The notes under the pieces: generated by a model
The model's database searches: none
Seen by the model: the letters and a program-made list of their open reading frames with translations, nothing else
Told to the model about the DNA's origin: nothing
NCBI GenBank assembly: GCA_964016885.1
Contig: OZ024743.1
Span: forward strand, 194,184,001-194,248,000
DNA: 64,000 nucleotides
Source: Eledone cirrhosa
Lineage: Eukaryota
Direction of reading: 5' to 3'
Translations under genes and position numbers: made by a program
Shown: positions 10,872 through 64,000 of the stretch, one piece after another
Layout of the letters: every line of letters starts with the position of its first letter
Position numbering within the stretch: the stretch's first letter is position 1

Positions 10872-10940
<69 letters not shown>

Positions 10941-11141
10941 ACGTACATACCTATATGTATACAGACGTACAGTAGTATGTATATTCATACATACATGCAC
11001 ACACATATATATATATATACATATGGGTTTACCGAACATTTATTATAATGCTCGGTTTGTTTGTAAACAAACAGCCCGAATTATTAGCCGTACAGTGTTC
11101 GGCAACCATTGTTGCCCTTTTGTTCAACACTGACAAAGGAA

Positions 11142-11182
11142 CGATGAACTAGTTTCGCGCTTATTGGCTGTCATCAGCACCG
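11142..11182 (-). ncRNA. Minimal type I hammerhead ribozyme
   Basis: cggtg-CTGATGA-cagc caata agcgc-GAAA-ctag-TT-catcg; stem I cggtg/catcg, palindromic stem III. Confidence 0.8.
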
Positions 11183-11906
11183 TATACTTTCCTGTCAGTC
11201 GATTGAACGTTTGAAAGTATATACTTTCCTTATGCATATTAACGGCTGAACAGCCTAATTTGCATATTGAGTGAGTTAGTTGGCCGGGCGTACCGAAAAC
11301 GATAAATATAAAAAATTAAATTTCATTTCTCACACTTAGTACGGCTGATACTTAAATATAATTATGTATATGTACATACATATATGTATACAGACGTACA
11401 GTAGTATGTATATTCATACATGCACACATATATATATGTACGTATGGGTTTACCGAACATTTATTATAATGCTCGGTTTGTTCGTAAACAAACAGCCCGA
11501 ATTATTAGCCGTACGGTTCATCGTTCCTTTGTCAGTGTTGAACAAAATCGCAACGATGGTTGCCGAACACTGTACGGCTAATAATTTGGAATGTTTGTTT
11601 ACAAACAAACCGATCATTATAATAAATGTTTGATAAACCCATACGTACATATATATATGTGTGCATGTATGTATGTATATATATACTACTGTACGTCTGT
11701 ATACATATATGTATCTACGTATACATACTTATATTTAAGTATCAGCCGCACTAAGAGTGAGAAATGCAATTTCATTTTTTCCATTTATCGTTTTCGGTAC
11801 GCCCGGCCGACTAACTCACTCGATATGCAAATTAGGCTGCTCAGCCGTTAATATGCATAAGGAAATTATATACTTCAAACGTTCAATCGACTGACAGGAG
11901 GGTATA

Positions 11907-11947
11907 CGGTGCTGATGACAGCTAATAAGCTAGAATCTAGTTCATCG
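11907..11947 (+). ncRNA. Hammerhead copy with GAAA>GAAT mutation
   Basis: cggtg-CTGATGA-c agct aata agct a-GAAT-ctag-TT-catcg. Confidence 0.7.
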
Positions 11948-12243
11948 TTCCTTTGTCAGTGTTGAACAAAAGGGCAACAATGGTTGCCGAACACTGTACG
12001 GCTAATAATTCGGGCTGTTTGTTTACAAACAAACCGAGCATTATAATAAATGTTCTGTAAACCCATACGTACATATATATGTGTGCATGTATGTATGTAT
12101 ATACATACTACTGTACGTCTGTATACATATAGGTATGTACGTATACATACTTATATTTAAGTATCAGCCGTACTAAGGGCCGAGACCATGTACATACACA
12201 CACAGACGCACATACACACACACACACAGACACACACACACGC

Positions 12244-12719: not shown

Positions 12720-13726
12720 TATTTATGTATATATATAATTTGTACAGATTAATAGTTTAAACAGAGAATCTAAATAATTAATATTCGTTCTACGCTTATA
12801 TATCTGTGTGTGTGTGTATGTATATATATGTATGTAAAAGAGTGATATGATATATTCTACTTCGTTAAGTTACAATGACTAAAATGAAAAACCTATGGAA
12901 ATAGTTAAGCAACTAAGATCGAAACCTAAACTCTCTAGTAGAAAAAAATTAATCTATAAACATAATTTGTTAGGCTTTTTCAGTATTGATAGTCATTAGT
13001 GTTATTTATTGGGTATTAGCAATCGATCCCGATAATATAGGAAATCACTTATGTAACAAACCGATAACATAAGTTAAAAATAATGAGTCGACATTTATTT
13101 CTTTCAACAAGTTTCACCATAGAGTATATCAGTCACGTTAATGAAAAAAACCCCCAAAAAACCACAACTACAACCAAACGTACGAATATCAGTTATCCAT
13201 TTTGCAAAACGAAAATGTAAATTGATATATTTAAATGGATGCTAAGAGGAAAAACAGCGTTGGTCACCCTTACTTTAAGGTTGTATAAATCAAAGTAACG
13301 ACTCGTATCACTTAGATATTACTAATGGAATTCAAATACACAAGTTTTACAGCTAAGTATAAATAGATTTGATTTTGTTCAATTAAGTCGAATTTTTATT
13401 CTGTTCATTGACTAGAAAATGACACTGAAATGGCTAACAAATCAGCAATAAAATGACTACAAGAGAACAGGTAAAAACATATTTAAGAACGTTAAGAGCA
13501 GAGGCTATTGATTGAAGCATTATAAATTCAAATTAAATAGCACCGTTAAAAAAGTATAGTAAGTAGTCGACAGATTATTGGTTTAAATATTTCTATCACT
13601 GGCAAACGTCTAGAAAGTGGTGCAATGTAAATGAACAAATATTTCAAAATATAAATATCTGTAAAATTAGAATATGACGCAAATGATTTCTTAACAAGGC
13701 AATATATATATATTTAATATAGACAA

Positions 13727-13775
13727 GCTTCTACAGGACTAGAACTGCTTCATTCGTGATAAATCATCAGGAAGC
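13727..13775 (-). ncRNA. Hammerhead copy (GAAA>GAAG)
   Basis: Reverse complement of the 14080-14128 motif with two substitutions. Confidence 0.7.
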
Positions 13776-14079
13776 TGCCTGTCCAAGTAAATATGGTGGT
13801 ATTTATATCTTTTCTGGTGGTAGGAGAGAGTGGGGATTGGGATGGGCGGAGGTCATTGGTTGATGGGTTTAAAGAAAAGGGAATTCTTTAAAAGCTAATT
13901 CTTTAAAGCTATAATTTATATTTGTCACTCTAAATATAAATCATAGCTTTAAGGAATCAGCTGTTAAAGAATTCCCTTTTCTTTAAACCCATCAACCAAT
14001 GACCTCCACCCATCCCAATCCCCACCTTCTCCTACCACCAGCAAATATATAAATACCACCATATTTACCTGGACAGTCA

Positions 14080-14128
14080 GCTTCCTGATGATTTCTCACG
14101 AATGAAACAGTTCTAGTCCTGTAGAAGC
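14080..14128 (+). ncRNA. Type I hammerhead ribozyme, canonical core
   Basis: gcttc-CTGATGA-t ttc tcac gaa t-GAAA-cag ttctagtc ctg-TA-gaagc; all three stems pair, GUA cleavage triplet. Confidence 0.88.
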
Positions 14129-14259
14129 TTTTCTATATTAAACATTTATACTCTGCTATGTATTGAGTACCTTATTTACTGTGGTTACCCCCGATTGAAC
14201 CCGGAATAACTTATATATATATATATATATATATATATCTTTTTTACATATATACATAC

Positions 14260-33234: not shown

Positions 33235-33698
33235 TATATATCATAAAACATGTCTATAGAATCACAAGATAAAATATATACCATTTCCTCTCCCAATTAG
33301 CATAATTAACTATATAAAAAATCGAATAGACCAGGCTATAAGAATGAGGCTTCTATGAAGAAATCTCTAACAAATAACCGAAATTAGCCCTTCGCGTCGG
33401 CCACAACGGAATATTTATCGAATATTTCGACAGCGTAATCGCCCAGATACAGTCAACTAAACAGAATTCTGTTTAGTTGACTGTATCTGGGCGATTACGC
33501 TGTCGAAATATTCGATAAATATTCCGTTGTGGCCGACGCGAAGGGCTAATTTCGGTTATTTGTTAGAGATTTCTTCATAGAAGCCTCATTCTTATAGCCT
33601 GGTCTATTCGATTTTTTATATAGTTAATTATGCTAATTGGGAGAGGAAATGGTATATATTTTATCTTGTGATTCTATAGACATGTTTTATGATATATA
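33235..33698. repeat. Spacerless 464-bp palindrome
   Basis: Centre GAATTC at 33464-33469; no arm mismatch found by eye. Confidence 0.95.
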
Positions 33699-34290: not shown

Positions 34291-36873
34291 TCAGGTTATA
34301 AATTGGGTGTTGAGCTCTAGTCTATTACTGATTGGTGGATGTGTTCTATCTATAATGAGTGCTTCCTTGATTCTAAGATTGCCGAGGTTTCTTTCTTTAG
34401 TTTCTATCCTAACTGTTATGTTTTTATCAGTGTTTTTGCATTTAACTAGGTGTTTCTTAAATGAGGAAGCGTTAGTATTGAGGTGTTCTTTTATTCTTAT
34501 GTGGAGTGGTCTGGTGGTGCTACCTACGTAGAAGTTGTTGCATTTGTCACACTCTAGTCTGTAAACTACGTAAGCCTGGTGGCATAGGTCTGTGTCGTTG
34601 ATGGGGCAGTTGGCTAGTCTGCAGCAGTTGTCATGTCTGGTGGAGCGTCTCTTAGCTAGCCGTCCACGCAAAGAAGGACCCGAATGGGCCAGTTGAATAT
34701 CCAGACCTTCTCGTCTGATGGCTCTGCGGATGGCTGTTGTTGTTTCTTCACTGAAGTGTGGGAGCTTCAGGAAGCAAGTGTTAGTGCCTCGGGTGTGGTG
34801 TCCTCTGTTCTTTCTGGCACGGTTTGTGGTGGATGTCGTGTATCCGTTCAGTTTGAGTACTTCCAGGAAATGTGTGGTGTGTGTGTCTCGGTCTCTGGCG
34901 TCGGTGCATTTGTTCTTGATACGTGCCAGTTCGTTCTTTATGTATCCGAACTTGGCACCGAGTGGGAGGTCCGATCTGAAATGTACGAACAGGTCCCTGC
35001 TGGCGGATTTTTTATAGAAGCAGGTGTGGATGTTGCCTTCCTCTGTTACCCTGAGTTGGAAGTCCAGCAGGGATAGGGATCCGCGGTCATCGGGGTGTTC
35101 TATGCTGAACTTTATACTGGCGTCCATGCTGGAGAATGTTGTGTATATTTTCTCTGCCTCTTCACGGGATGATGTAAGGATGAGTATGTCATCTACATAT
35201 CGGGTGAAGAAGGCATGGGAATGGCAGGTGTTGAGGGCTCGGCATTCTAGCTGGTTCATGTAAGTGATGGCCAGCAGGCCAGAGAGGCTGGATCCCATGG
35301 GTAATCCTGTTGTCTGTCTGTATGTGTGGTGGTGGAAGGTGAAGTACGTGTTGTCTACTGTGAAGGACAAAAGTTGGTGTATGTCCGTCGGGTGGAGGCC
35401 GTAGCAGTGGATGTTCTCTGCGACCACGCAGTCCGTCAATAAATCGACAGCTGGGTGAGCGGGGACTGTAGTGTAGAGGGAGACAACGTCGAGGCTAAAA
35501 GCGTATTTGTTAAGTTTAAGTTGTTCTGGCTGGAGTTGGTGTAATCTACGTATAACTTCGTCGGAGCTACTGACATGTCCGGGGAAGGTGGAGAGTAGAG
35601 GCTTGAGGACCTGGGAGAGAAGCCAGGAAATTTTGTATAGGGGTCCTTCTATGCTAGAGACGATGGGTCTTATATGCGTCTTAGTGCTATTCTTGTGGGT
35701 CTTGATGAGGTGGTAGAAAGTGGGCAGTCTGCTATTTCTAGTGGTGTAGTTGAGTTTAATTTTATTCGGGAGTTGTCTTCTCCTACAGATATCGAACCAA
35801 ATGGAGTTGGTCTGTTTTTCGATTTGGGCTGCGGTCATGTCCGGGATCACTGTGTACAGTTCACTGTCGCTTAGGTGTTCGAAGGCTAGGTTATTGTATG
35901 TGGCTTGAGAGATGACGCAGAACTCTTTACCTTTGTCGGATGGTAAGTAAATAAGTTCCTTATTCCGTAGGTTCTTCAGGGCGAGTTGTTGTGTCCTGGA
36001 GAGGTTAGGGGCCATCTTCTTCTGTTTCCGTAAGATGTTAAATACGGAATGTTTTAGTCTCGAGAGTTTTTCTTCCAGCTCGCGGTTGGCGGGCGGTGGA
36101 TAGAGTGGGCGATCTAGTTGGTATATCGGGAATCTGGGTGTGGTGGATTCCGTGGTGTTGTTGTCGAGAGTCGATATCCATTTCAGTTGGTAGGCAGTCC
36201 GACAGAAATTCGTTTCTATGTCGAGCCATAGTCTGTCGTCCAGTCTCTGTTTCAATATGAACTTGGGACCCAGGCTGAGGAGGTCTAATTCCTCTCGGGA
36301 GAGGGATCCTGTCAAGTCTGTGACGAGGTGTTTTGCGTCAGGTGTGTTGTTGGTCGGGGTGCCGCTAGGTTCGGTGTTGGTAACGTATTGTTCGCCTCTG
36401 TTGGTGTTTGGCGTTGGGATGTTGTTAAGACAGTTGGCCGTCCTGAGTTTGAGAAATTTTTGCGTTAGGCGTATTTTCTCGTAGTCTCGGCGGTGGTGGT
36501 ATGAGCTGTCTATAGTGGCGGAGATGACCTTGGACAGAGGTTCTGGGGTTTCAGCGAGTTGTGGTACAAGGCTGGAGATAGTCCGTATGTGATGTTGTAG
36601 CGTGCGGTGTAGGTGTTGTATGAGTTTTCTTAGGCAGAATTTTTGTATGTAACTGAGTGATCGTTTGAGGCCTGGTGAATTGAAGCATGTTGGTAGGTGT
36701 ACATTTTTGATGGTTTTGGGAATGATGTTGTTATTCAGGCATCGTTTTAGGAAATTTATTTGGCAGCCGGCTTTGGCGCGCTTTTCAGATAGCTGGAAGA
36801 GTTTCTTTACAGTTGTGAACTGGGCCTGGCTCAGGCGTAATGAAAGGGGGAGGTTATAGTTCACTTGAAGCAT
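34291..36873 (-). CDS. PLE reverse transcriptase-GIY-YIG endonuclease (~860 aa from first ATG; frame open to 36987)
   Basis: PSDKG, IKTHK, IRPIVS, SLDVVSLYT, GLPMGS, RYVDD, VVY..C..C..YVGST..L..RIKEH, EALII. Confidence 0.95.
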   Translation of the reverse strand: MLQVNYNLPLSLRLSQAQFTTVKKLFQLSEKRAKAGCQINFLKRCLNNNIIPKTIKNVHLPTCFNSPGLKRSLSYIQKFCLRKLIQHLHRTLQHHIRTISSLVPQLAETPEPLSKVISATIDSSYHHRRDYEKIRLTQKFLKLRTANCLNNIPTPNTNRGEQYVTNTEPSGTPTNNTPDAKHLVTDLTGSLSREELDLLSLGPKFILKQRLDDRLWLDIETNFCRTAYQLKWISTLDNNTTESTTPRFPIYQLDRPLYPPPANRELEEKLSRLKHSVFNILRKQKKMAPNLSRTQQLALKNLRNKELIYLPSDKGKEFCVISQATYNNLAFEHLSDSELYTVIPDMTAAQIEKQTNSIWFDICRRRQLPNKIKLNYTTRNSRLPTFYHLIKTHKNSTKTHIRPIVSSIEGPLYKISWLLSQVLKPLLSTFPGHVSSSDEVIRRLHQLQPEQLKLNKYAFSLDVVSLYTTVPAHPAVDLLTDCVVAENIHCYGLHPTDIHQLLSFTVDNTYFTFHHHTYRQTTGLPMGSSLSGLLAITYMNQLECRALNTCHSHAFFTRYVDDILILTSSREEAEKIYTTFSSMDASIKFSIEHPDDRGSLSLLDFQLRVTEEGNIHTCFYKKSASRDLFVHFRSDLPLGAKFGYIKNELARIKNKCTDARDRDTHTTHFLEVLKLNGYTTSTTNRARKNRGHHTRGTNTCFLKLPHFSEETTTAIRRAIRREGLDIQLAHSGPSLRGRLAKRRSTRHDNCCRLANCPINDTDLCHQAYVVYRLECDKCNNFYVGSTTRPLHIRIKEHLNTNASSFKKHLVKCKNTDKNITVRIETKERNLGNLRIKEALIIDRTHPPISNRLELNTQFIT

Positions 36874-37432
36874 TGTGTGATGAGGTATAAACGTTAGAAT
36901 ATGTGTAATAAGGCCAAGACAATGCAGATATGGACATAGAAAAAAGAATGCAATAGTGAGAGATATTGATGAGAATTCGTCTTTCACCTTGAATTTATTT
37001 AAATGTCCTTAATTTTCGAGATAATATCTCTTCTTCGGAGGGAAGTAAAAGTCTCAGACCAGCGTCTTAAATTTCCAATGAAGCCATGCTGACCGGAAAT
37101 AGTATACAGTTCTAGCTTTAAAATCAAAGAATTAAAATTAGGTGGGTAAAGAGTAGTCTCCCTTTAAGAGGGGTTTGTTTATGTTTTTGTTGTATTTTTT
37201 AAATTTTATATGCGTGCCTGTATATGTGTGTGGGAGAAAGCATGAAGGTGTAGGTATGTGGGTGTGTGTGTGTACATACATAATATGGTTTACCTTTTGT
37301 GGTAGGGTGTATATCGTAGTTAGGACTCAATGTAATCCGTTAGCAAGTAATTCAGAGAGACCCAGAGATATATTCTGAGTCAATCCTTTAGATACAGAGC
37401 CTGATATATTAGATATTAGTTTAACAATGATA

Positions 37433-39625: not shown

Positions 39626-39869
39626 TAATCTTTCACACTAGTCAGCATTAAGTAGTCGGTAAAAAAATTGGAAAATGCAATGCGAGTGAAATCCATTGGA
39701 GAGAACTTTCAGACAATTAATTAGTATAAACAAACACGCCATATTGTACATTTATACACATTACATACACATACAAATATATATATATATAAAGAAAAAA
39801 AGATGAAATCGAAAATGTAACTGGAGTCTTATTTTAAAAAAAATATTTATTATTTGGTTCCTTATTTAT

Positions 39870-40517
39870 TTGGTACGAAAACAGAAACAAAATCAAGGTA
39901 CGTCCAATATTCTATCATATATCTCAACACACAACCCAAGAAATGCAGAAGCTTACAACACTATTCACAAGAACATCCCACTACTAAAACAAAACCCAAG
40001 AATGAAAAAAGCCCTTGAAACACACAAAATAATCAAAAGCAAAAGACAACCGAAATCACTGAAAACATTACTCACCAATGCCAAATTACCTACCACAAAC
40101 CCACAACCAACTGTCAAAAAATGTGGTCGCTCTAATTGTGGAACCTGCACTCACTTCATTGAAGGCAACACGTATACATTTAAATCAGGACAACATTTTA
40201 CTGTAAAAAATCACTTCACTTGCTCATCAAAAAATCTGATTTATGCCATTAAATGTAAAGGATGCAATGAAGATTATATAGGACAAACTAAACTCACACT
40301 CAGAAACAGAATGACAGTTCATCGCCAACAATTACGAGATCCAACCACGAGACAGATACCACTAAGCGCATATCTAGACATATGCGCAAGTAATAAGACA
40401 CCCAAATTCCAAGTCTTCCCATTTTACCTTTGCGCTAACAATACAACAGAACAAATACGAATAAATAAGGAAAATATGTTTATTCAAAAATATAGACCAG
40501 CATTAAATATGGTTTAA
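39870..40517 (+). pseudogene. PLE C-terminal fragment: Cys-rich linker plus GIY-YIG endonuclease (Neptune-like)
   Basis: KCGRSNCGTC, FTCSSKNLIYAIKCKGC..YIGQT...RNRMTVH, E..FI....PALN. Confidence 0.9.
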
Positions 40518-41014
40518 TATACATTATGTCAACACCATAACATGCTAACCATCCAAACAGGCACATAGACACACACATAACACCTTCTACTTTAGAAAAT
40601 AAAAACCCGAACTAAATAAACCTTAACATACGTTTGCACTGACAATACAACAGAACAAATACGAATAAGTAAGGAAAATATGTTCATTCAAAAATATTCC
40701 TACTAAAGGAATCATTCTCCTACACACACACACACACACAATATATATATATTCTCTTCATCTTAACATGCTAACCATACTCCCACACACATAACACCGA
40801 TACGCACACATAACAATCCCCACCCCCACACACACAACTCCCTCCCCCATTTCTACTAATAGAATCGCGTTCCTACACACATATATACACACACACCAAA
40901 TATATATATTCTCTCCATCTTAACATACTCTCACACACACACACACAGATAACACCCATATACACACACACCCAACTCCCTCTCCCATTTCTACTAATAG
41001 AATCATCTTCCAAT

Positions 41015-41046
<32 letters not shown>

Positions 41047-41069
41047 ACACACACAGACACACAGACACA

Positions 41070-41119
<50 letters not shown>

Positions 41120-41123
<4 letters not shown>

Positions 41124-41432
41124 CACACAAATAAACATACACATCTTTACTTTCTTTACTTCAATAGAAAATCTGAATTCTGACACCCCAGCGAACTAAC
41201 CATATTCACTGAACCAGAACAATTCTCCCATCCCATTTCTCTTGACCATTATCTTTTGCTTGTCAAAAAATTCTCTAAAAAGGCTACAGAATAGATTTCC
41301 AAATAAGGGCGCGAAAATTTAATGAAAACTTGTTCACGTGGCAGCCATAATTTCATTTATAACCAATCAAATTACGTTTATTTAAAAAAAGCCTTCGTGA
41401 GCCCCCCCCCCTTTTTTTAATAAAAAGAAATT

Positions 41433-41475
<43 letters not shown>

Positions 41476-41790
41476 GCACACACATAAACATACATATCTT
41501 TACTTTCTTTATTCAATAGAAAATCTGAATTCTGACACCCCAGCGAACTAACCATATTCAATGAACCAGAACAATTCTCCCATCCAATTTCTCTTGACCA
41601 TTATCTTTTGCTTGTCATAACATTCTCTAAAAAGGCTACCGAATAGATTTCCAAATAACGGCGCGAAAATTTAATGAAAACTTGTTCACGTGACAGCCAT
41701 AATTTCATTTATAACCAATCAAATTACCATTATTAAAAAAAACCCTTCATGAGCCCCCCCTTTTTTAAGTAAAAAGAAATTCAAATATGA
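41120..41790 (+). repeat. 352-bp tandem duplication in the PLE 3' region
   Basis: atctgaattctgacacccc at 41171 and 41523. Confidence 0.9.
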
Positions 41791-41935
41791 AAAAAATAAC
41801 CTGTGACCCCCCCCCCCCCCCTTGTTTGAAGAACTTTGTAACGCGAACTGGCGCGAAATTTATTATAATTATTGACCAACCAATCAAATTACTTCTCGAA
41901 AACCTGGCATTTCGAGCCACTTTTTCCATATAAAA
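41308..41935 (+). promoter_or_regulatory. Candidate pLTR Pol II promoter: 3x GGCGCGAAA, 3x CCAAT, TATA-like
   Basis: GGCGCGAAA at 41308, 41660, 41850; CCAATCA at 41363, 41715, 41880; CATATAAAA at 41927. Confidence 0.5.
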
Positions 41936-41997
41936 CAAGTAACATTCAGAGACCAACCAGATGTGAGAAAAACCACAGACCCTCCATCTCAACTCTA

Positions 41998-42033
41998 CTT
42001 TTGAAAAGCTGAAGAACTGCGAAACCGGTAAAG
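41998..42033 (+). ncRNA. Minimal HHR, U3-A8 variant
   Basis: ctt-TTGAAAA-gctg aagaa ctgc-GAAA-ccgg-TA-aag. Confidence 0.7.
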
Positions 42034-42195
42034 GAACCAAATAAATATATATATTTAAAAAAAAAAAAAGGAACCAAATAAATATATATATATTTTTTAA
42101 AAATAATACTCCAGTTGCATTTGCAATTTCATCTTTTTTCTTTATACTTTCACTCGTGTAGGACACCTCGGTTATTTTTCATTTTGTAAAAAAAA

Positions 42196-42297
<102 letters not shown>

Positions 42298-44301: not shown

Positions 44302-44483
44302 CATAGAATTTTATTTTCCTTATAAAGCGTGAACAAGATTTGTGTGCCTCTGTTTTGTTTCCTTGAAATATATATAGATATATAACGAAGGAAGTGTGGT
44401 AAGGAACCAGGTGAACCATAACGCACCAGATTACTCAATACTTAGGGCAGTATAGTGGGTAATAGAAAAATGTTCAAGACCCC

Positions 44484-45367
44484 ATAGTTCAGGAATATTG
44501 AGGACAAACGGGACACCAAATTCATCCAGTTCGACATAGAGAGCTATTACGCCTCTATTACCCTACCGCTCCCTACGGCCGCTTTGGACTTTGCCAAAAC
44601 ACTTACACCCATCACCGACCAAGAAAGAAACATCATTTTCCACGCCAGGAAGACAGTCCTCCTCTTCGACAACTCCAATTGGATAGAGAGAGCTCTCGAC
44701 TCCCCCTTCGACGTCAGTATGGGCGCGACTGACTCGGCGGAGTTGAGGATTATTCCTATTACATAAACTCACCGAAATGTTTCCTGCATTTGGCGGTGGA
44801 TTGTAACGAGACGATGGGTTCCTTACTCTCAAAGGGTACAACCCCAGTAGTACAGACCGCGGCGGTAAACACCTAATCAACTTCGTCCGGGACTGGGGAT
44901 TTAAAATCACCCTACAGATCTTCCTAACCCAAGTCAATTTCCTGGACGTTACCCTCAACCTCGAAAATGATCTGTATTACCCATACAGGAAACCAAACGA
45001 CAACCTTCACTAAACCCACCGCCGCTCTAATCATCCTAGAAACATCACCAATAACCTGGTTAAAAACATCTCCCTCCGCATATCTCGTTTGTCCGCTAAT
45101 GAGCAGATATTCGATGAACATGCGCCTTATTACAATCAGGCCCTCAAGCGAAGCGGCTTTCAGGAGGAAATTTCATTTTACCCAGCTTCCCCTAGCGGAA
45201 CCAAGAGGCGACGCCGCCGCTCACGACACGCAACGTGGTTCAACCTCCCCACAATGCCGAGGTTGCAACACCAATTGGGAAAATCTTGTTTAGGCTCCTC
45301 GAAAAACATTTTCCACCACAACACCACTACCATAACATAATCAACAAAAACACTATCAAACTTTCCT
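44484..45367 (+). pseudogene. Decayed PLE RT, Naiad-like
   Basis: FIQFDIESYYASI, FDVSMGATDSAE, GL*RDDG, VNFLDVTLNL, YYPYRKPND, TWFNLP, with frameshifts. Confidence 0.85.
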
Positions 45368-45736
45368 AAAGGAGGGGTCTTGAACATTTTCCTATTTATA
45401 TATATTTATTTATTTATTCAATGAAGTTAAGTTGGTTGATTGAAAATCTGCCTACTTTTTCATAACAGATGACTCAACGGTTTATGTTTATCCGGAGGTT
45501 TATTAAAATAATAAATAAGAAAGAAGAGTGTATCATTCGATCATCCCTGTTTATTTTATTAAACATTTTTCGAAGAATTATGCCATTTGTATAACATCTG
45601 CCGCACGCGTTCTCTTCAGACAAGAAAACACGTAGGGCAGATGCTATACAAATGGCATACGTGTTCGAAATACGTATAATAAAATAAATAGGGATGGACA
45701 AATGATACCGTCTTTTTTGTTTATTATTATTTTGTT

Positions 45737-45915: not shown

Positions 45916-45964
45916 TATTAATGATAATAATAATAATAATAATAATAATATATATATATATATA

Positions 45965-46459
45965 TGAGTATAGACATAGAATATTCGAAAATATTCTGTA
46001 TGTTTATAATAAACATTTTGAAGACCTAATCGCTATAGAATAGAATACGTCACGTATTACAATTAGATTCTCGATAAAAGCAAGGGAAGTAATCTACGCG
46101 TTTCATATACTCACATATATATCGCTATTTCAGAGCATTTATTCCAATTTCTAATTTCTGCCGGACCGGCAACCGCTCTTTCAAACCAGTTCCAGTACAC
46201 AGCTAAGTATTCTATAAGTCTCTAGCTGTGTCATTCTCGATAAAAGCACTGGATATGTAGTCCTGATGAATTCTAACAAGAATGAAACGCGTAGATTACT
46301 TCCCTTGCTTTTATCGAGAATCTAATTGTAATACGTGACGTATTCTATTCTATAGCGATTAGGTCTTCAAAATGTTTATTATAAACATACAGAATATTTT
46401 CGAATATTCTATGTCTATACTCACATATATATCGCTATTTCAGAGCATTTATTCCAATA
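45965..46459 (+). mobile_element. Retrozyme-like element: 310-bp unit, terminal direct repeat, 142-bp 5' inverted copy
   Basis: 46106-46149 = 46416-46459; 45965-46106 is the reverse complement of 46282-46423. Confidence 0.9.
46257..46299 (+). ncRNA. Minimal type I hammerhead ribozyme, canonical core
   Basis: gtagtc-CTGATGA-attct aaca agaat-GAAA-cgcg-TA-gattac. Confidence 0.9.
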
Positions 46460-46502
46460 TATATATATATTTATATACACATATATATTTGTTTGTATGT
46501 GT

Positions 46503-50692: not shown

Positions 50693-50893
50693 GATAGAGT
50701 AAGACACGCTTCGCATCGGCTCCGCTATTCCATCGGGATTTACCCTTACTATTGTAAGTACCGGATAAAATTTTTAGTGCAACACATTTGGAACACTAAC
50801 CCCTGTTATTTAGGGAAACATTTTTGCATTTACCCCCTTTTTAGGGGGTAAAATAAATATCTATTTTTGCCGAAAAATTTCTTTCTTGGCAGC

Positions 50894-52582
50894 ATGGCGG
50901 AAAAGATGGCAGACATGTCTGCCATTAGCTCTGCCACGCCCCCCAAGTCTGAAGAACAAAAAATAATTACAACAAAATTAGACTTTGAAACAAACAAACA
51001 AAATGAAAAAACAAATGTTAAGGAAAATGAGCAAACAGAAAACAAACAAACAGAAAATAATACAAATAACGACAGGGCAACTTTCGCCCAGAAAACAAAG
51101 CAATCCATTACATACACACCAATTGACCTAACTGCCGCCAGAGAAAAACTGGCCGAAGCAAAGAAACATATTGTTTTGGGAGAGAACGGAATGTTTTCCA
51201 TTAACTCCCCCCCAGAATTCAAGAAAGCCAGAGAAGAAAACACAGTTATATACAGAACTATACTAAACCAGTCAAGAAAGCCAGCACAGCCCAGCCAAAT
51301 GGAAATAGAGTTAGTCCTAAAAGACTATATGAAGAATATTCTCTTCATACGAAAGGACCGACTCTATGGCAGCATTTCGGTCCTAACAAGAGACAAAGAA
51401 ACGGCGGTTCAGCTTTCCCTAAGCCCACTCTCGTCGACAACATATAGCTTCTATCCCTCCTACATGGGTAGAAGAACACAGAGGGTAAAAGTAAAAACAA
51501 TGCTGCCCACAATGGACTTCTGGTGGGCTATTGCTGGCTTCATTGATATGGGCGAAGACACTATGCTGTCAATGGGGAAGGCAACTGGAGATGCGTTCCT
51601 GGGAATGGGCCTCGACATACTAGTCCAAATGAGGCCCGAAAGAATAGCACAAATCCCGGATCGCATCTGGCTGGATGACCTTACCCCAATAGACATAATT
51701 GTAGAGGGGAGAAGACCAGCATGCTATCTATGCATGGAAAGGGGACACGTTAAGGCTAACTGCCCGAAACGTATCCCCCAAAAAGGACTATTGCCCACAC
51801 CCACCACAAACAGTACACCAGCACCACCCACCTCCAAAAATACACTAATACCACACACAGCAAACAAAATACAGACACCACCAACCACAAACACAACACA
51901 AACATCACCACCACCAGCACCAAACACAAGCACGACACAAAAATCACCACCACCAACCACAACACAAACATCACCACCACCATTACCAACCACAAGCACG
52001 ACACAAACATTACCACCACCACCACCACAAAACCCATTCCAAACAAATAATAAAAAAAACAGTAACAAATCTACCCCTCCCGCAAAAAAAAAACAACCAC
52101 ACAACACGTCCCTCCCACCTAGCGCTGAAGAGTTTCCCCCAACTTCTGAAGAAGAAGGAGGAGAAGCCTTCAGACAAGTTAAAAGAAAAAAAAGAAAACA
52201 CACACCCAGCACACCACAAATAACCCACACACAAACACCAACTCCAATCAAAAACACCCCACCCTCAACAAACAAAAATAAATCTGCGCCTCCCCTCTCC
52301 GAAACATTGACAGCATCACAAAAAAAGACGTTGCAATACACATATATAAATAAAGAAAACAAAAAACTGGTTAAATTAATAAACAATAACCCTATGGTGC
52401 AGACCGAAGGGCCAAACTTTATCTCAACAGAGAACTTCACCCATTTAAAAATGATAAAGGTCCCTCTGGACCTTTATCGTTCCTTAAAAGAACAATTTAG
52501 ACGGGACGTGAGCCCCCCCCTGTTTAAAACCGTTGAATCGCGTCCTCTTGAAAGATTTCCCCATAACCGCCCCTCTCCCTGA
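50894..52582 (+). CDS. LINE ORF1, nucleic-acid-binding protein with a CCHC zinc knuckle and a P/T-rich region
   Basis: CYLCMERGHVKANC; basic QVKRKKRK; first ATG at 50894. Confidence 0.85.
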   Translation: MAEKMADMSAISSATPPKSEEQKIITTKLDFETNKQNEKTNVKENEQTENKQTENNTNNDRATFAQKTKQSITYTPIDLTAAREKLAEAKKHIVLGENGMFSINSPPEFKKAREENTVIYRTILNQSRKPAQPSQMEIELVLKDYMKNILFIRKDRLYGSISVLTRDKETAVQLSLSPLSSTTYSFYPSYMGRRTQRVKVKTMLPTMDFWWAIAGFIDMGEDTMLSMGKATGDAFLGMGLDILVQMRPERIAQIPDRIWLDDLTPIDIIVEGRRPACYLCMERGHVKANCPKRIPQKGLLPTPTTNSTPAPPTSKNTLIPHTANKIQTPPTTNTTQTSPPPAPNTSTTQKSPPPTTTQTSPPPLPTTSTTQTLPPPPPQNPFQTNNKKNSNKSTPPAKKKQPHNTSLPPSAEEFPPTSEEEGGEAFRQVKRKKRKHTPSTPQITHTQTPTPIKNTPPSTNKNKSAPPLSETLTASQKKTLQYTYINKENKKLVKLINNNPMVQTEGPNFISTENFTHLKMIKVPLDLYRSLKEQFRRDVSPPLFKTVESRPLERFPHNRPSP

Positions 52583-52735
52583 CACAACTCCAAATACCCC
52601 AACCCCACCACACACGTGTACCCCCACACCACCACAAAACATCCCTCCACCCAACACACCTGATGCCATGGAAATTACGCAACCCGGAGAGGTAAGTGCT
52701 TTTCTTTCTTCACTTTCAACACCAAAATAGATCAA

Positions 52736-55700
52736 TTGAGAGTTGGCTGTTTGAACGCGCGTGGCCTGAGCTCAGCTTGGAAGCAAGCAAAGCTTCTAAG
52801 TGACCTCAGGTCACAAAGTATAGATGTGATGGTTGTTTGCGAGAGTCGGATCAGCAGCGTGAGACAGCTGGCGCCCGCCTTCGATGACTTTGAGATGCAC
52901 GCATCTCTCTGTCAACCCGGAGGCGGGGGGGGAGTTGCCGTACTGCTGGATAAACGTCTAACTCTCGACGTACAGATTGTTCACTCGGACCCGGGGGGTC
53001 GATTACTGGTGCTGGACGTCGGAGGTGGTGAAGGCGGGGCTTTCAGACTGGTCGGTCTTTATGCTCCCTTCGGGGCGGAGAGAGCCGACTTCTTCCAACG
53101 TCTGGAGACTTTTCTAGGAACGTCGCGTTCCCTGCTTTTAGTGGGGGACTGGAATGGAATCCTAGATGCGCGTTGGGACTATGCAGGGGCATGTCCCGAT
53201 AGAGGGGGGTGTAGCAGCCTCAAGGGGTTACTCGATCGATTCGACCTGGTCGATAGATTTCGACTAGATTGTCCAACTGCGCCAACCTGGACCTGGGCAA
53301 ACCGCAGTGGACAATCTAGATCGTACCTAGATAGGTTTTTGGTTAGGAGTAAGGATAGGGACGTATTTAGTTGTCCAGAACTGATCATGGTTGGCTATTC
53401 AGATCACAAATTAGTGACCTGCGTGGTCAACCTTGATAGAACGCATAGACAGGGTCCCGGTTACTGGAAGATGAACTTGTCCTTACCGACAAAGAAAGAT
53501 TACAGAAACCGGATTAGTAGCTTAGTTAAGATGCGGTTGACGGGAGCGATCGTCAACAGTAGGTGGTGGATATCTCTAAAGAGAGAGATTAGAGTAAGTT
53601 CGATAGGTTACAGTAAGGAACTAGCGGCGAATAGAAATAGGAGGGAAAGGGAGTTAACAGATAAACTAGAAGAGGCGATTAGGAGCGGAGACGTAGCCAG
53701 AGTGTTAGCGACGAGAACGGCATTGAGCCAGTTCTTTGACACGAAGCACGAAGGCTGCGTTGTCCGAAGTAAAATACGTGCTTTAGGAAACGAGGGGACC
53801 AAAGCTGTTAGCTGGGCCCGCGTGACAGAAGCCAAGAGTGGGATTAAATCCACCATTCGGTCTTTGCGAGACCAGGATGGACGGGTGATCCTTGAACCTG
53901 AGCGAATGTGCGAGACCTTTCAAAGGCACTTTGCTCGACTGTTCGGAGGTGGCGGGGGGCCGGACGGGGATGTGGACTTCGGTCCATACCTCGACGGTCT
54001 ACCGCGTCTTTCGAGCGGCGAAGCGGAGTGCTGCGAAGGGCCAATCACAGCCACTGAAATCGGGGAAGCGCTCAGCCAATGCAGCAGACGCAAATCCCCG
54101 GGTCTCGATGGTCTACCATACGAACTTTATTTAGCTATGCCGGTCTTGTTCTCCGAACTCCTCGAGGCTGTCTATTGCAACTGGCAACAGAACGGGAGAA
54201 TTCCCTGTTCTGTGACCAAGGGCGTGGTCACGCTAGTGAGGAAGGACGAGAGCAAGGGGGACGACTTAAGTAACTTTAGGCCCATAACTCTGCTGAATGC
54301 AGAGTTACAGATTTTGGCCAAGGTGTTGGCGAAGAGGTTGGCGCTTGTGGTGGGTGGTTTGGTGGGAGACGCGCAGACATGCGCTATCCCGTCCAGGTCC
54401 ATTCACGACAACCTCCACCTCATGCGATACATCATAGAGAGGGTTGGCTACGAACCCGGCTTTGGTGGGGCCCTGATCAACTTGGATCAATCTAAGGCGT
54501 TCGATAGGGTCGACCATGGTTACCTGGATGCGGTGCTAGCGGCGGCGGGCTTCGGACCCGTTTTCAGGGGCTGGATTTCTGCCATGCACAGTGGCAACAT
54601 CTACTCTAGGATTAAAGTAAACGGCTACCTCTCGGAGCCGTTTCAAATCACCCGATCCATCAGACAGGGGTGCCCCCTCTCCTCCCTCCTGTACGTATTG
54701 ACTCTCGAGCCACTGCTGCGGAAGTTGGAGTTGCTGCGGGGCATACCCCTGGAACCGGGATTGCACAAAGCGGTCTCGGCCTATGCCGACGACGTAACAG
54801 TAATGGTGGCGGACGCCTCGGAAATCGGGGCGATCGCCACCCTACTGGAGGAATACGAAAGGCTGACGGGGGCTAAGCTGAACCAGGACAAGTCAGTCGG
54901 TTTGCAACTCGGAACGTGGAGGGGCAAACCGATGCCGTTAGACGGTGTCGTCGGGCGGTGGACGGAGGGCCCGGTGAAGCTGCTAGGGGTCTGGTTCGGA
55001 CCGGACCTCCAGGTGGAGAAGAATTGGGGCGAGGTGACGAGCAGGGTGTTTGCGCTGACCCAGAAGTGGGCCAAGTGCAAACTATCACTGAAAGGTCGGG
55101 CGGAGGTGACGAACGCTTACATAGCGTCCGTCATCTACTACCGCCTGACCGTCGTGCCTTGCCCCAAGGAAAAGCTCACCATCATGGAACGCATGCTCTT
55201 CCAGTTCCTCTGGAAGAAGCGGCCTCCCATGGTGAGGAGATCCATCTGCTGCCAGCACCCTTCGAAAGGAGGGCTGGGTATGCCGTGGCTGTTGATGCGT
55301 AGGCACGCATTGAGGCTACGGCATCTACAGGTATTCCTCAACGGTCAGCCGGTGTGGGCCCCGTTTGTGAGGCGAGCCTTCCCACAGCTCGTCTCGCTCA
55401 CCGAACTGCAATCCTGGGTGAAGCAAAGACCGAGAAAACTGGGCAACTGGCACACTGAGTGTGCCCAGGCGCTCACGGCTATCTGGCAAGCGGACCCGAC
55501 TGTCAGTGGAGAATCCACCTCAACATTCTATAGAGGGTTGGTGGCTAGCAGGGGCGACGACACCCTTGGAGAGTCGCTAGGCATGGAGGAGGACGAACTG
55601 GCCAGCCTGTTCGGTAGAACTTTCGGCCCGGGACCCATGGACAACTTCCAGAGGTCCCTAGCCTGGCAGTGTTACCGGGGGGCTCTGCCCGTTCGAGAAA

Positions 55701-56164
55701 AGCTCTACAGACACGGGCGCCCGGGCAGGGATCCCGCGAAAAAGATCTGTCCCAGATGCGTGCGCGACGAGGAAACCGTTGCGCATGCACTGGTACACTG
55801 CCCGGGCGTTGCCGATCTGTGGGGCTACGTCGAACGACTGCTGTCGCGTGTGGCGCCGATTCGATTAACCGCCGAGTCTGTGGTGAACATCAAGCCGCCT
55901 CCTCCCTTCAGAAATGAAGCAGAGGCGGTCTTTCTGTGCGTAATAGCCATGATGAAAGAGGTTGTGTGGTGGACGCGCCTGAAAGGTCTGAGGTCGGGTG
56001 ACTTTCTCTCCGGCCATCACCTGGTTTACTTCTTCCGATACCACTTCGGAAGAAGAATCAGGATGGAGAGAGAAGTGCTTGGTCCCAGACAGTTTTATGA
56101 AAGGTGGGTGAAAGAAGCGAGAATGGCCCGTGTAAATGGGCCTTCTCTCTACATTGTTCTGTAG
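52736..56164 (+). CDS. LINE ORF2: APE endonuclease, reverse transcriptase, C-terminal CCHC
   Basis: CLNARGL, GDWN, YLDRF, SDH, KSPGLDG, FRPITLLN, DQSKAFDRV, RQGCPLS, YADD, CPRC..ETVAHALVHC. Confidence 0.95.
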   Translation: MRVGCLNARGLSSAWKQAKLLSDLRSQSIDVMVVCESRISSVRQLAPAFDDFEMHASLCQPGGGGGVAVLLDKRLTLDVQIVHSDPGGRLLVLDVGGGEGGAFRLVGLYAPFGAERADFFQRLETFLGTSRSLLLVGDWNGILDARWDYAGACPDRGGCSSLKGLLDRFDLVDRFRLDCPTAPTWTWANRSGQSRSYLDRFLVRSKDRDVFSCPELIMVGYSDHKLVTCVVNLDRTHRQGPGYWKMNLSLPTKKDYRNRISSLVKMRLTGAIVNSRWWISLKREIRVSSIGYSKELAANRNRRERELTDKLEEAIRSGDVARVLATRTALSQFFDTKHEGCVVRSKIRALGNEGTKAVSWARVTEAKSGIKSTIRSLRDQDGRVILEPERMCETFQRHFARLFGGGGGPDGDVDFGPYLDGLPRLSSGEAECCEGPITATEIGEALSQCSRRKSPGLDGLPYELYLAMPVLFSELLEAVYCNWQQNGRIPCSVTKGVVTLVRKDESKGDDLSNFRPITLLNAELQILAKVLAKRLALVVGGLVGDAQTCAIPSRSIHDNLHLMRYIIERVGYEPGFGGALINLDQSKAFDRVDHGYLDAVLAAAGFGPVFRGWISAMHSGNIYSRIKVNGYLSEPFQITRSIRQGCPLSSLLYVLTLEPLLRKLELLRGIPLEPGLHKAVSAYADDVTVMVADASEIGAIATLLEEYERLTGAKLNQDKSVGLQLGTWRGKPMPLDGVVGRWTEGPVKLLGVWFGPDLQVEKNWGEVTSRVFALTQKWAKCKLSLKGRAEVTNAYIASVIYYRLTVVPCPKEKLTIMERMLFQFLWKKRPPMVRRSICCQHPSKGGLGMPWLLMRRHALRLRHLQVFLNGQPVWAPFVRRAFPQLVSLTELQSWVKQRPRKLGNWHTECAQALTAIWQADPTVSGESTSTFYRGLVASRGDDTLGESLGMEEDELASLFGRTFGPGPMDNFQRSLAWQCYRGALPVREKLYRHGRPGRDPAKKICPRCVRDEETVAHALVHCPGVADLWGYVERLLSRVAPIRLTAESVVNIKPPPPFRNEAEAVFLCVIAMMKEVVWWTRLKGLRSGDFLSGHHLVYFFRYHFGRRIRMEREVLGPRQFYERWVKEARMARVNGPSLYIVL

Positions 56165-61368: not shown

Positions 61369-61421
<53 letters not shown>

Positions 61422-61520
61422 TTGGTGCTGTGAAATAGCGATATATATATGAATGTATATATAGTGTATTTTGCAATACACTGTATGTTTAATTAAAAGC
61501 ATTTCGAAGATCTTAGGCTT

Positions 61521-61791
61521 TTGTTTTAGAGTAGTGACAGTCTCACTTACTTTAAATTTTCAGCAAACAGGGGAGATAAAGCTGACAGAGCGCTGTTTCG
61601 TACTTTTTGGTACTTATCAAAGCTAAGTACTCCACCTGTTTGCTGAAAATCATGGATGTTTGATTCTTATAGAATTCTAGTAATAATCAGGAACTGATTA
61701 TACAGAGCGAACGAAAGAGAGCTCTGTCAGCTTTATCTCCCCTGTTTGCTGAAAATTTAAAGTAGGTGAGACTGTCACTACTCTAAAACAA
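61521..61791. mobile_element. Foldback pLTR (arms 61521-61600 and 61711-61791)
   Basis: Arms are reverse complements; HHR overlaps the left arm. Confidence 0.85.
61580..61624 (-). ncRNA. Hammerhead, U3-A8 variant
   Basis: agct-TTGATAA-gtac caaaaa gtac-GAAA-cag cgct ctg-TC-agct. Confidence 0.78.
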
Positions 61792-61924: not shown

Positions 61925-64000
61925 CTAAAGGAATAAGGGTGGGGAGTTCAGGCCGGGGGGAGTGTGGGTCTGTAAGATGAAGATAGTTCTTTGTTCGACT
62001 CTAAGGAGATTGGCGGGTGTTCCGTGGCATTGGAGTAGGCCACAGACTGTGAGATGGCGTGCGGAATGTCCAGGGGCATGTGGAAACGTTGGACTGGAGG
62101 CGTCGGAAGAGGCGGCGGATGGTGCGGTGGAGGGGTAAGGTGGAGGGGTGGTAGGTGATGGGGAAGGGGAGACGGTGGGTGGGTGTGCGGTGGCGTGGGG
62201 TGAGGGTGGTGGAGCGGTGCACAGCACGGGCGCGGGAGAGATCGGTGTGGACGAGAGAGGGGGGTAACCTCTGCGGATGAAATCGCTGACTAGGGAAAGG
62301 GCCTGGGACTCGAAGTCAGCATCTCGGCTACAGAGGCGGCGGATCCTGAGGAGTTGGGAGTAGGGAATGGAGTGTTTAGTGTGGGTGGGGTGGGAAGAGG
62401 TGAAGTCGAGGTAAGAGTGGGAGTCGGTGGGTTTGAAGAAGGCGGAGGTGACGAGGGAGTGGTGGGAGGAGTCGAAGGCGACGGAGATGTCTAAGAAGGG
62501 ACGTGGGTGGTGGGGATAGAGGTGGTGAAGTGGAGGGAGGGGTGGAAGGAGCAGAAGAAGGAGAGAAAGGAGTCGAGCTGTACTCGGGTGAGGGTCGTGG
62601 CTCCGATACAGTCGTCAATGTAACGACCGTACAGTTCAGGCGTGGCGCCGGTGTACTGGGAAAAGATTTGGGCCTCAACATGGTCAATAAAAAGGTTTGC
62701 ATAGTTCGGGCCCATTCTTGTACCCATGGCTACCCCCGTGACCTGTTGGTAAAACTCACCCGAGAAGGAGAAACAATTGAGGGTGAGGACCAACTCGGCG
62801 AGGCGAAGGAGGGTGGGGGTGGAGGGAATGAGGGAGGGGCGAAGGTCGAGGTAGTGTTTGAGGGCGCGTAAGCCGTCGGCGTGGGGGATGACGGTATAGA
62901 GGGACTTGATGTCTAGGGTGAAGAGGAAGGGCTGTGGGCCGGGTGGGTAGGTGAAGGAGTCGAAAAGGCGCAGGGCGTGGTTGGTGTTGGAGATGTGGGA
63001 GGGGAGGGTGGTGACAAGGGGGGCGAGGATGGGGTCGAGAAAGGCGGAGATTAGTTCGGTGGGGCAGTTGCAAGCGGAGACGATGGGGCGGCCGGGGTTG
63101 TCGGGTTTGTGGAGTTTGGGGAGGAAGTAGATGGTGGGGGTGCGGGGGGTGCGGACGATGAGGTGGGAAGCGGTGGGGGAGGAGGGAGGAGGGAAGAGGC
63201 GATAAGGTCTTGGATGGTTGAGGAGACTTGTTGTTGGTAGGGGGGGGGGGATCGGAGGGTAGAGGGCGGTAGAAGAGGGGGTTACAGAGCTGCCTGAGGG
63301 CTTCGGCCGTGTAGAGGTCCGCGCGCCACACCACCACGGCGCCTCCCTTATCCGCCGGTTTGATGCCGATGTCATCTCGGCTACGGGGGGAGCGGAGAGC
63401 GAGGAGTTCGCCCCGTGAGATATTGTACCGTTTGGAACGGTGGCGGAAGTCGAAACGATTTACTGCGCTACGGCTGGCCTCGACGAACGCGTCCAGGGTG
63501 CTAAATTGCCTTGGGGCCGGCGTCCAAGAAGATGGTCGTCGGCTCAGGGCGAGAAACGGGTCTGGGGCGTCCGGAGCCGGTGGCGTTCGGCCCAAATGTG
63601 CCTGTAGCTTCGTGCGTCGCACGAATCGCTCGACTTCCGTTCGGGTGCGGAACTCGTCGCTGTGCGGAGTGTGGGGTATGAAGCGAAAGCCTCTACTAAG
63701 GAGTGAGCGCTCAGGTGCGGAGAGGGGGAGGTCAGGGGGTATGGTGACAACAAGTGCTGGGGTTTGGGTGTGTGGGGGGAAGGGAGGGTGTGGTGAGGGG
63801 TGAGGTGGAGGGTGGAGATTGGGTAGGGGTGTGGGTCGAGGGAGAGGTGGAGAGTGGTGGGCGTATGGGGATGGGCGGGTCGTGGTGGATGGGGGTGGTT
63901 GGGAGGAGTGAGTGTAGATTGCGGGCTTTGGTGGAGCTGAGGAAGGAGAAGATGTTGTGGTTGAGGTTTTGGATGAAGGAGAGGATGACTTGGGCGAGGA
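61925..64000 (-). pseudogene. Frameshifted PLE RT with partly deleted endonuclease; continues beyond the window
   Basis: IKPADKGGAVVVW, LPKLHK..PGRPIVS, LDIKSLYT, GVAMGTRMGP, RYIDD, and C-terminal EQ..IF.L.T..P.GLN. Confidence 0.92.

Follow-up and report, generated by a model that had tools for sequence, protein, structure and literature searches.

A putative non-LTR retrozyme family of Eledone cirrhosa with two-armed insertions and Penelope-like ends

Retrozymes and their connection with Penelope-like elements (PLEs) are already known, and the closest described relatives of the repeat considered here are the metazoan non-LTR retrozymes, which include a newt and axolotl satellite and repeats of corals and mussels (PMC7229834). 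Like these, as they are described there, the 310-bp family of Eledone cirrhosa forms dispersed tandem arrays of a low-GC, non-coding unit (150-450 bp in that report) that carries a type I hammerhead with a short palindromic helix III. The copying of circular RNA into tandem cDNA was proposed in the same work, with PLEs named as candidate partners. Circles and cleavage were demonstrated at the bench for those repeats, whereas for the 310-bp family both are predicted from sequence. The family also departs from them in its two divergent arms, its two fixed outer ends and its (TA)n target, and the main text of PMC7229834 does not contain the word "inverted". Plant LTR retrozymes, as described, are likewise non-autonomous and have a hammerhead and a circular RNA intermediate, but theirs is a type III hammerhead within LTRs, with a 4-bp target-site duplication and a Gypsy partner, while the 310-bp unit has a type I motif, tandem units and no LTR layout.

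Endonuclease-bearing PLEs such as Neptune, Poseidon and Naiad (PMC8557442, PMC11167929) provide the second comparison. According to PMC8557442, PLE insertions lie in (TA)n targets and carry an inverted truncated copy and a 30-40-bp tail on one end. The inverted second arm and the one-sided tail of 30-40 bp that are common among the endonuclease-bearing elements recur in the 310-bp family, and these elements also have a microsatellite or AT-rich target, internal start sites of reverse transcription and a hammerhead in the repeat. Unlike them, the 310-bp family has no reverse transcriptase (RT) or endonuclease frame, and its arms reach tens of identical turns. In vitro, a purified PLE protein cuts AT-rich DNA on both strands and extends each, starts reverse transcription at two internal sites that bound the tail, no difference in start site having been seen between the strands, and mostly uses uncut RNA (PMC11167929). 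Chlamys elements such as MRC1 are likewise non-autonomous PLE derivatives, often multicopy and head-to-tail, which generally resemble an autonomous family at their 3' end and are mostly described without canonical hammerheads (PMC8557442). The same link between non-autonomous elements and PLEs is drawn in bioRxiv 10.64898/2026.07.22.740005 from co-occurrence and sequence trees, with local amplification suggested, whereas in the 310-bp family it comes from the insertion ends, and the arrays seem to have had their length from the outset. Searches of the open-access literature brought up no account of retrozyme insertions with two arms and a PLE tail, or of haplotypes as evidence on the template; Repbase, subscription papers and supplements may hold one.

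The window, by which is meant the whole stretch of 64,000 nucleotides that was analysed, holds one insertion of 494 bp (45965-46458) between TA repeats. Its left target flank, (ATA)n and then (TA)n, occupies 45920-45964, as read from the sequence and in keeping with (TA)n flanks family-wide, and the right flank, (AT)n, occupies 46459-46471. The long-end arm (46106-46458, plus strand, 353 bp or 1.14 units by repeat comparison) runs from unit position 1, counted from 46106, round to position 43, which is its outer end. The short-end arm (45965-46106, minus strand, 0.46 unit) runs from unit position 177 to position 8, its outer end and the end class common to 29 of 50 loci, and the two arms share a single base, T46106. 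One monomer of 310 bp with 34.5% GC (46106-46415, plus strand) is delimited by the repeat spacing, the fold and tandem copies genome-wide; stops occur in all six frames, each closed within ~60 codons, which together with the spacing of 310 confirms the non-coding unit named in the preliminary description. That description also reported a terminal redundancy of 44 bp. The repeated stretch is 43 bp (46106-46148 and 46416-46458, at spacing 310, with 46459 already in the TA flank), and rather than a terminal feature it reflects 1.14 passes over a unit whose arm lengths differ freely between loci. The perfect 142-bp 5' inversion held up, since 45965-46106 is the exact reverse complement of 46282-46423 with no mismatch, but it is no accident of this copy, a second primed arm being present at almost every locus.

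The long-end arm alone carries a 35-nt "tail" (46424-46458, plus strand, unit positions 9-43), recognised by comparing locus ends under the definition of PMC8557442 and PMC11167929, and this tail is inferred to be the stretch between two RT start sites. The window copy would be a short case, the product of 1.14 and 0.46 turns, and likely a dead end. With one sense cut site it would itself release no monomer, and a transcript from upstream would fold as a 142-bp hairpin over half of the ribozyme, which makes it a likely inactive source.

The type I hammerhead motif (46251-46303, plus strand) is identified by its sequence, a weak Rfam match and the conservation of its core, with a predicted cut after A46293 in a GUA triplet. 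Stem I pairs GTAGTC (46257-62) with GATTAC (46294-99) and is extended past a bulge by GGA/TCC; the core consists of CTGATGA (46263-69) and GAAA (46284-87), and stem II is ATTCT/AGAAT with the loop AACA. An ACGCGT stem III had been claimed: the palindrome is present at 46287-92, but stem III itself has only 1-2 bp, with the palindrome in its loop. A palindromic short stem III of this kind is the type that works as a dimer, cleavage itself being predicted. The motif is enclosed by a 16-bp helix (46233-46248 with 46306-46321, plus strand), exactly as first described, which rests on exact pairing, propagated changes and compensation in a sister family, and both of the small hairpins named earlier recur in the predicted monomer fold, which beats all 100 shuffles (z -4.1). 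Searched with Rfam, the unit gave a weak Hammerhead_HH9 match (23 bits, E 0.0029, below the gathering score of 52). Among the 150 of 158 matches listed for a scan of the whole window there was no hammerhead, and the matches of that scan were set aside as miRNA noise driven by microsatellites. A second hammerhead-like element was observed on the minus strand at 45430-45700, with a core near 45619 and an ACGCG stretch resembling stem III; it has no BLAST match to the 310-bp unit.

Substitutions within the arrays could be divided into propagated and sporadic ones, 68 of the latter occurring in one monomer and 9 in several. The 25 distinct propagated substitutions include none at the 12 core positions, and at core or paired positions they keep pairing 6:1, mostly by way of G-U pairs on the plus strand, whereas the sporadic ones break it 22:1 (Fisher p 8e-5). 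The sole propagated change that breaks pairing puts U against U at the base of stem II and is the state met most often (44 loci); it should weaken cleavage, and it recalls the axolotl HHR_Amex2 described in PMC7229834. The cleavage site carries no indel in 517 passes. As a separate observation, 7 of the 25 propagated changes are A to G on the RNA strand (unit positions 96, 137, 138, 154, 173, 190 and 208) against 2 T to C, compared with 5 and 9 among the sporadic ones, the direction being read relative to the window haplotype. Either A-to-I editing made permanent by reverse transcription or selection in favour of G-U pairs may lie behind this excess.

Across the 3.0-Gb genome, 17,796 ribozyme cores were counted when known variants were allowed and a ~312-bp subfamily was included; exact cores of the window type number 3,918 by pattern count, and exact junctions of unit position 43 with TA number 1,058. 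Reversed control patterns gave no match genome-wide, and this result, set beside thousands of near-identical unit copies, means that the motif is not a product of chance. DNA searching returned at least 282 matches, with 40 of 146 candidate regions scored, and the 150 matches listed were all full-length, identical and in dispersed arrays. The plus strand has 831 long and 838 short ends, from which, by doubling, ~1,700 loci and ~5.5 Mb can be estimated. Each unit has a type I hammerhead, falls within 150-450 bp, has a GC content below 50% and is non-coding, and the units form dispersed head-to-tail multimers; by these features the family would be one of young non-coding non-LTR retrozymes, with the window copy as a small member. 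The earlier suggestion of a retrozyme, or cDNA of a small ribozyme circle, is to this extent supported on genomic evidence.

Two related groups were seen in the same genome. An older subfamily of ~312 bp is ~94% identical and likewise two-armed (L039:185-1025, L155, L156). The other is a sister retrozyme family of ~320 bp (window 61415-61790, minus strand; L110:2750-3545, L146-L154, L157, L158), which keeps unit positions ~247-74 at 71-84% identity and has the same two end classes with a different hammerhead. Its core reads UUGAUAA in most copies and CUGAGGA in some, core positions 3 and 8 co-vary, and stem III is longer and often palindromic. A 22-base tail motif common to both families has 21,043 copies in the genome, and compensatory changes affect 19 of 58 predicted pairs in an alignment of 6 monomers that represent in effect two lineages. 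Since the module kept between the sister families (unit positions ~247 round to 74, of which 46352-46458 on the plus strand is a part) holds both ends, it may well bind protein, and the shared stretch 46352-46458 is likely recognised by the mobilising protein. The long end was also seen to lie 12-13 nt beyond the same helix strand in three families, as if measured from structure.

The architecture of the insertions was studied in two samples. The first comprised 20 loci from the top of the DNA search, of perfect identity and not picked by end type or flank, and the second comprised 60 stretches, all of one end type and on contig C1, that take in the first 61 junctions out of 1,058. Two divergent arms were present at 17 of the 20 loci in the first sample, the other three being of single orientation, and in each of the 17 one outer end is long (38-50) and the other short (4-17), the long one lying now on the left and now on the right, with TA flanking the outer ends of the sampled loci. 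The tail offset is 26-40 nt in 16 of these 17 and 21 nt in L049. For the second sample the opposite arm was found within 7 kb in 53 stretches and on extension in two more, with two gap-ended and three one-armed, so that of 58 loci that could be assessed 55 have two divergent arms; the second end lies at position 8 in 29 of 50, at 9-17 in 17 and elsewhere in 4. A one-sided tail, an inverted truncated copy at the inner end and an AT-rich or microsatellite target are therefore features that the unit family has in common with PLEs, the (TA)n on both flanks masking any target-site duplication, a feature that exceeds 4 bp in non-LTR retrozymes where it occurs. Between the outer ends and the cut site of the ribozyme there are ~145-180 nt, a distance that would make these ends RT start sites and not cleavage ends.

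Mean arm lengths over the 50 loci that are complete are 3.3 and 4.9 units, figures that are low through omission of the long arrays which the fetched stretches truncated, and an exponential distribution of arm lengths was not rejected. At 19 of the 50 the short-end arm exceeds the other in length, so that it can be no simple copy of the other arm, and fold-back copying of the first cDNA was ruled out on this count. The circularly permuted copies that the preliminary description had proposed to look for are present, the inner ends being freely permuted at the 80 loci fetched; these ends are scattered over the unit (p 0.40 and 0.045 for uniformity), and 0 and 2 of 53 lie at most 5 nt from the cut site, where ~1.9 are expected in each case. 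Run-off from a cleaved 5' end was ruled out, given that inner ends do not accumulate at the cut site. Direct joins overlap by at least 2 nt in 25 of 37 cases, against 18% by chance, the overlaps being approximate as taken from BLAST ends, and extra bases occur at 16 of 53 joins.

The probable origin of such insertions is a monomeric RNA circle that was copied repeatedly from both target ends by a Penelope-like enzyme, the cDNAs then being end-joined. Multimeric arrays would be transcribed and the transcripts cut to monomers by paired hammerheads, for which the observed palindromic stem III would be suited, and the monomers would be ligated to circles in which the lone hammerhead would be nearly inactive, as the accounts in PMC7229834 and PMC4209133 suggest. 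The former reports closure of the circles of other retrozymes by host ligase, and the latter that motifs with a short palindromic helix III are active as dimers and thought idle in monomeric circles. A PLE protein with RT and GIY-YIG domains, probably of Neptune type, would bind the module and nick both strands of the (TA)n that is observed as the target. Priming would take place at unit position ~43 on one DNA end and at ~8-17 on the other, where the ends are found, and both would copy a variable number of turns, in line with the observed arm lengths. The free cDNA ends would be joined by microhomology-mediated end joining, to which the pattern at the junctions points, and a minority of insertions probably came from an uncut or multimeric template. 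If stem I held a nicked monomer shut and the RT jumped precisely, the footprint would be that of a covalent circle.

The case for a circle is carried by the haplotypes, of which 31 were distinguished in 57 loci. Of the 42 loci at which both arms are full, 37 have the same haplotype in each arm, compared with 8.5% of 1,722 cross-locus pairs, and at nine loci (L059, L064, L068, L069, L081, L083, L089, L107 and L110) all monomers of the two arms, 4-21 per locus, carry a private change, private meaning within the 57-60 sampled of ~1,700 loci. A bottleneck of one monomer followed immediately by many turns is what is expected from a circular template. Homogeneous linear transcripts of the loci with private changes would likewise yield uniform daughters, and the same double priming could have used a long uncut linear array transcript as its usual template, circles serving rarely or never. 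This linear reading is unlikely, yet several observations favour it. At L102 and L083 the same ordered monomer differences are met from the outer end in both arms, and such mirroring in register is impossible from a single monomer circle, so that some templates would have been multimeric; these two loci also support the double-priming model in that both arms started in the same monomer of one molecule. At L074 the arms are out of register. The purified PLE protein works mainly on uncut RNA (PMC11167929), 8 of 9 Xenopus retrozyme dimers are reported without cleavage (bioRxiv 10.64898/2026.07.22.740005), and the commonest haplotype carries the U-U at the base of stem II. Against a linear template, the two mirrored loci face nine with fixed private changes, each of the 31 haplotypes in 57 loci would need a one-monomer bottleneck and then regrowth, and the propagated changes are under selection at the ribozyme core and helices. 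Moreover, the outer ends vary within one haplotype (long 38-50, short 4-17) and are therefore chosen anew rather than inherited from a parental 3' end.

Copying from a circle would produce arrays at their full length, and the distribution of mutations argues that the arrays were indeed born at length. Growth of PLE-type insertions of about one unit by later unequal crossing-over, as proposed in bioRxiv 10.64898/2026.07.22.740005, is very improbable as the general explanation, given that sporadic substitutions are absent from 24 of 60 loci, including arrays of 11-15 units, that array size is unrelated to the load of sporadic mutations (rho -0.02, n=60) and that 68 of the 77 sporadic substitutions are confined to a single monomer; the arms would in addition have to expand separately while their outer ends stayed fixed and their inner ends free. 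What speaks for such growth is the longest array, L087 and L143, with ~46 units in one arm and linked changes that recur at irregular intervals, which shows later growth at the DNA level there, and the few duplicated changes in L063 and L064.

The enzyme class proposed for copying the circle is well represented in this genome. An abundant PLE has an intact frame of 775 codons in 8 of 8 loci fetched for that frame; it appears to be of Neptune type, judged by a cysteine linker before GIY-YIG, with Pfam support for the window fragment only. The family has many intact copies (window 39790-42200, plus strand; L112-L140, L159-L166). All 7 divergent end pairs among 37 of its loci join a long and a short end in TA, its end classes are 64 nt apart (a 64-nt tail), the reading frame may lie on either arm, and a minimal hammerhead motif lies near 42009. 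There is no sequence match between the 310-bp unit and this family (38 loci, from window 39807-40517), which shows that the element indicates the class of machinery and not the partner. The window also holds an intact PLE frame of 905 codons with RVT_1 and GIY-YIG domains by domain search (34291-37008, minus strand), which from its reading would be Penelope/Poseidon-like in clade. This element was seen to lie between direct pseudo-LTRs, with repeats to ~33710 and ~37270 that end in TA, and a degenerate hammerhead-like motif was noted in its pseudo-LTR repeat. Long inverted-repeat elements at 1246-1898, 10924-12159, 13705-14150 and 33300-33600 are possibly other two-armed non-autonomous families.

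The preliminary description had allowed that the unit might occur only as the pseudo-LTR of a coding PLE, the copies being 5'-truncated remains. The tail, inverted arm and (TA)n target of PLE type agree with such an origin, as does the resemblance of Xenopus retrozymes to pseudo-LTRs (bioRxiv 10.64898/2026.07.22.740005), but it can hardly be credited, as all 80 family loci proved to be non-coding arrays or fragments with no RT or GIY-YIG frame joined to the unit, and the arms are head-to-tail monomers throughout. The tail motif gave 13 further hits, isolated or in the sister family, and every one of these was a retrozyme relative with no coding frame attached; the unit itself matches neither the Neptune-type pseudo-LTR nor the PLE pieces of the window, including the Poseidon-type element. 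A variant tail pattern was found at 144 places in the genome. Two candidate parents in the window were rejected: a broken PLE RT at 44400-45370 (plus strand) lies ~600 bp off, with other repeats between and no match to the unit, and the PLE fragment next to the sister copy (61415-61790) adjoins a truncated inverted arm, for which reason it is read as a neighbour. The RT at 44400-45370 and another broken PLE RT fragment, at 61925-63800 (minus strand), belong to other families.

An L1/Tx1-like element at 50852-56164 (plus strand), in which a frame of 576 codons precedes an endonuclease-RT frame of 1,166 codons, appears intact. Microhomology joins are typical of LINE twin priming, in which inversions are a minority and the second priming sites are scattered. 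Mobilisation of the RNA by an L1/Tx1-type LINE protein, with the inversion from ordinary twin priming, could draw on that intact ORF2 and on the microhomology joins, but is scarcely conceivable when there is no poly(A) end, almost all loci have fixed outer ends with 26-40 nt between them and the end rule matches that of a PLE of the same genome.

Traces of the unit were also met outside E. cirrhosa. Twenty runs with 18 organism codes from 17 studies share at least half of 28 sampled unit words, and none of them is listed as RNA. The two of these runs that serve as evidence, X5 and X8 (organisms C and F), each yielded a single contig of 340 nt that forms a closed cycle of 310 bases and has no flanks. 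These cycles differ from the window copy at 2-3 positions, those listed being positions 89 and 165, which are variable here too, and X5 is without the stem II change carried by most copies in the E. cirrhosa genome. The closed cycles, from runs of unrecorded type, fit tandem DNA and a circle alike. Two companion runs, X23 and X21, gave nothing: the unit was not seen in another organism-F sample or in 12.8 million organism-L DNA reads, such blanks being no proof of absence. The hammerhead-flank pattern had no match in metagenome contigs and viral contigs, among which records close to this genome may be missing. That the 310-nt circle is a viroid-like RNA crossing animal species, and integrating only where a matching Penelope protein exists, is highly doubtful; cross-library carry-over of an abundant sequence, be it the repeat with its 17,000 copies or an RNA, or closely related hosts, explains the units in other organisms more simply.

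Two questions meet in this family, namely how retrozymes are copied into new loci and how the inverted arms and one-sided tails of PLEs originate. With an estimated 1,700 young events it amounts to a natural experiment, the main value of which lies in mechanistic evidence, as single insertions tie the two internal RT start sites known in vitro to their pair of target ends. Rolling-circle target-primed reverse transcription becomes directly testable with the sister family and with a substrate of 310 nt on which two start sites are predicted, and such a process would matter for tools that write tandem DNA from small RNA.
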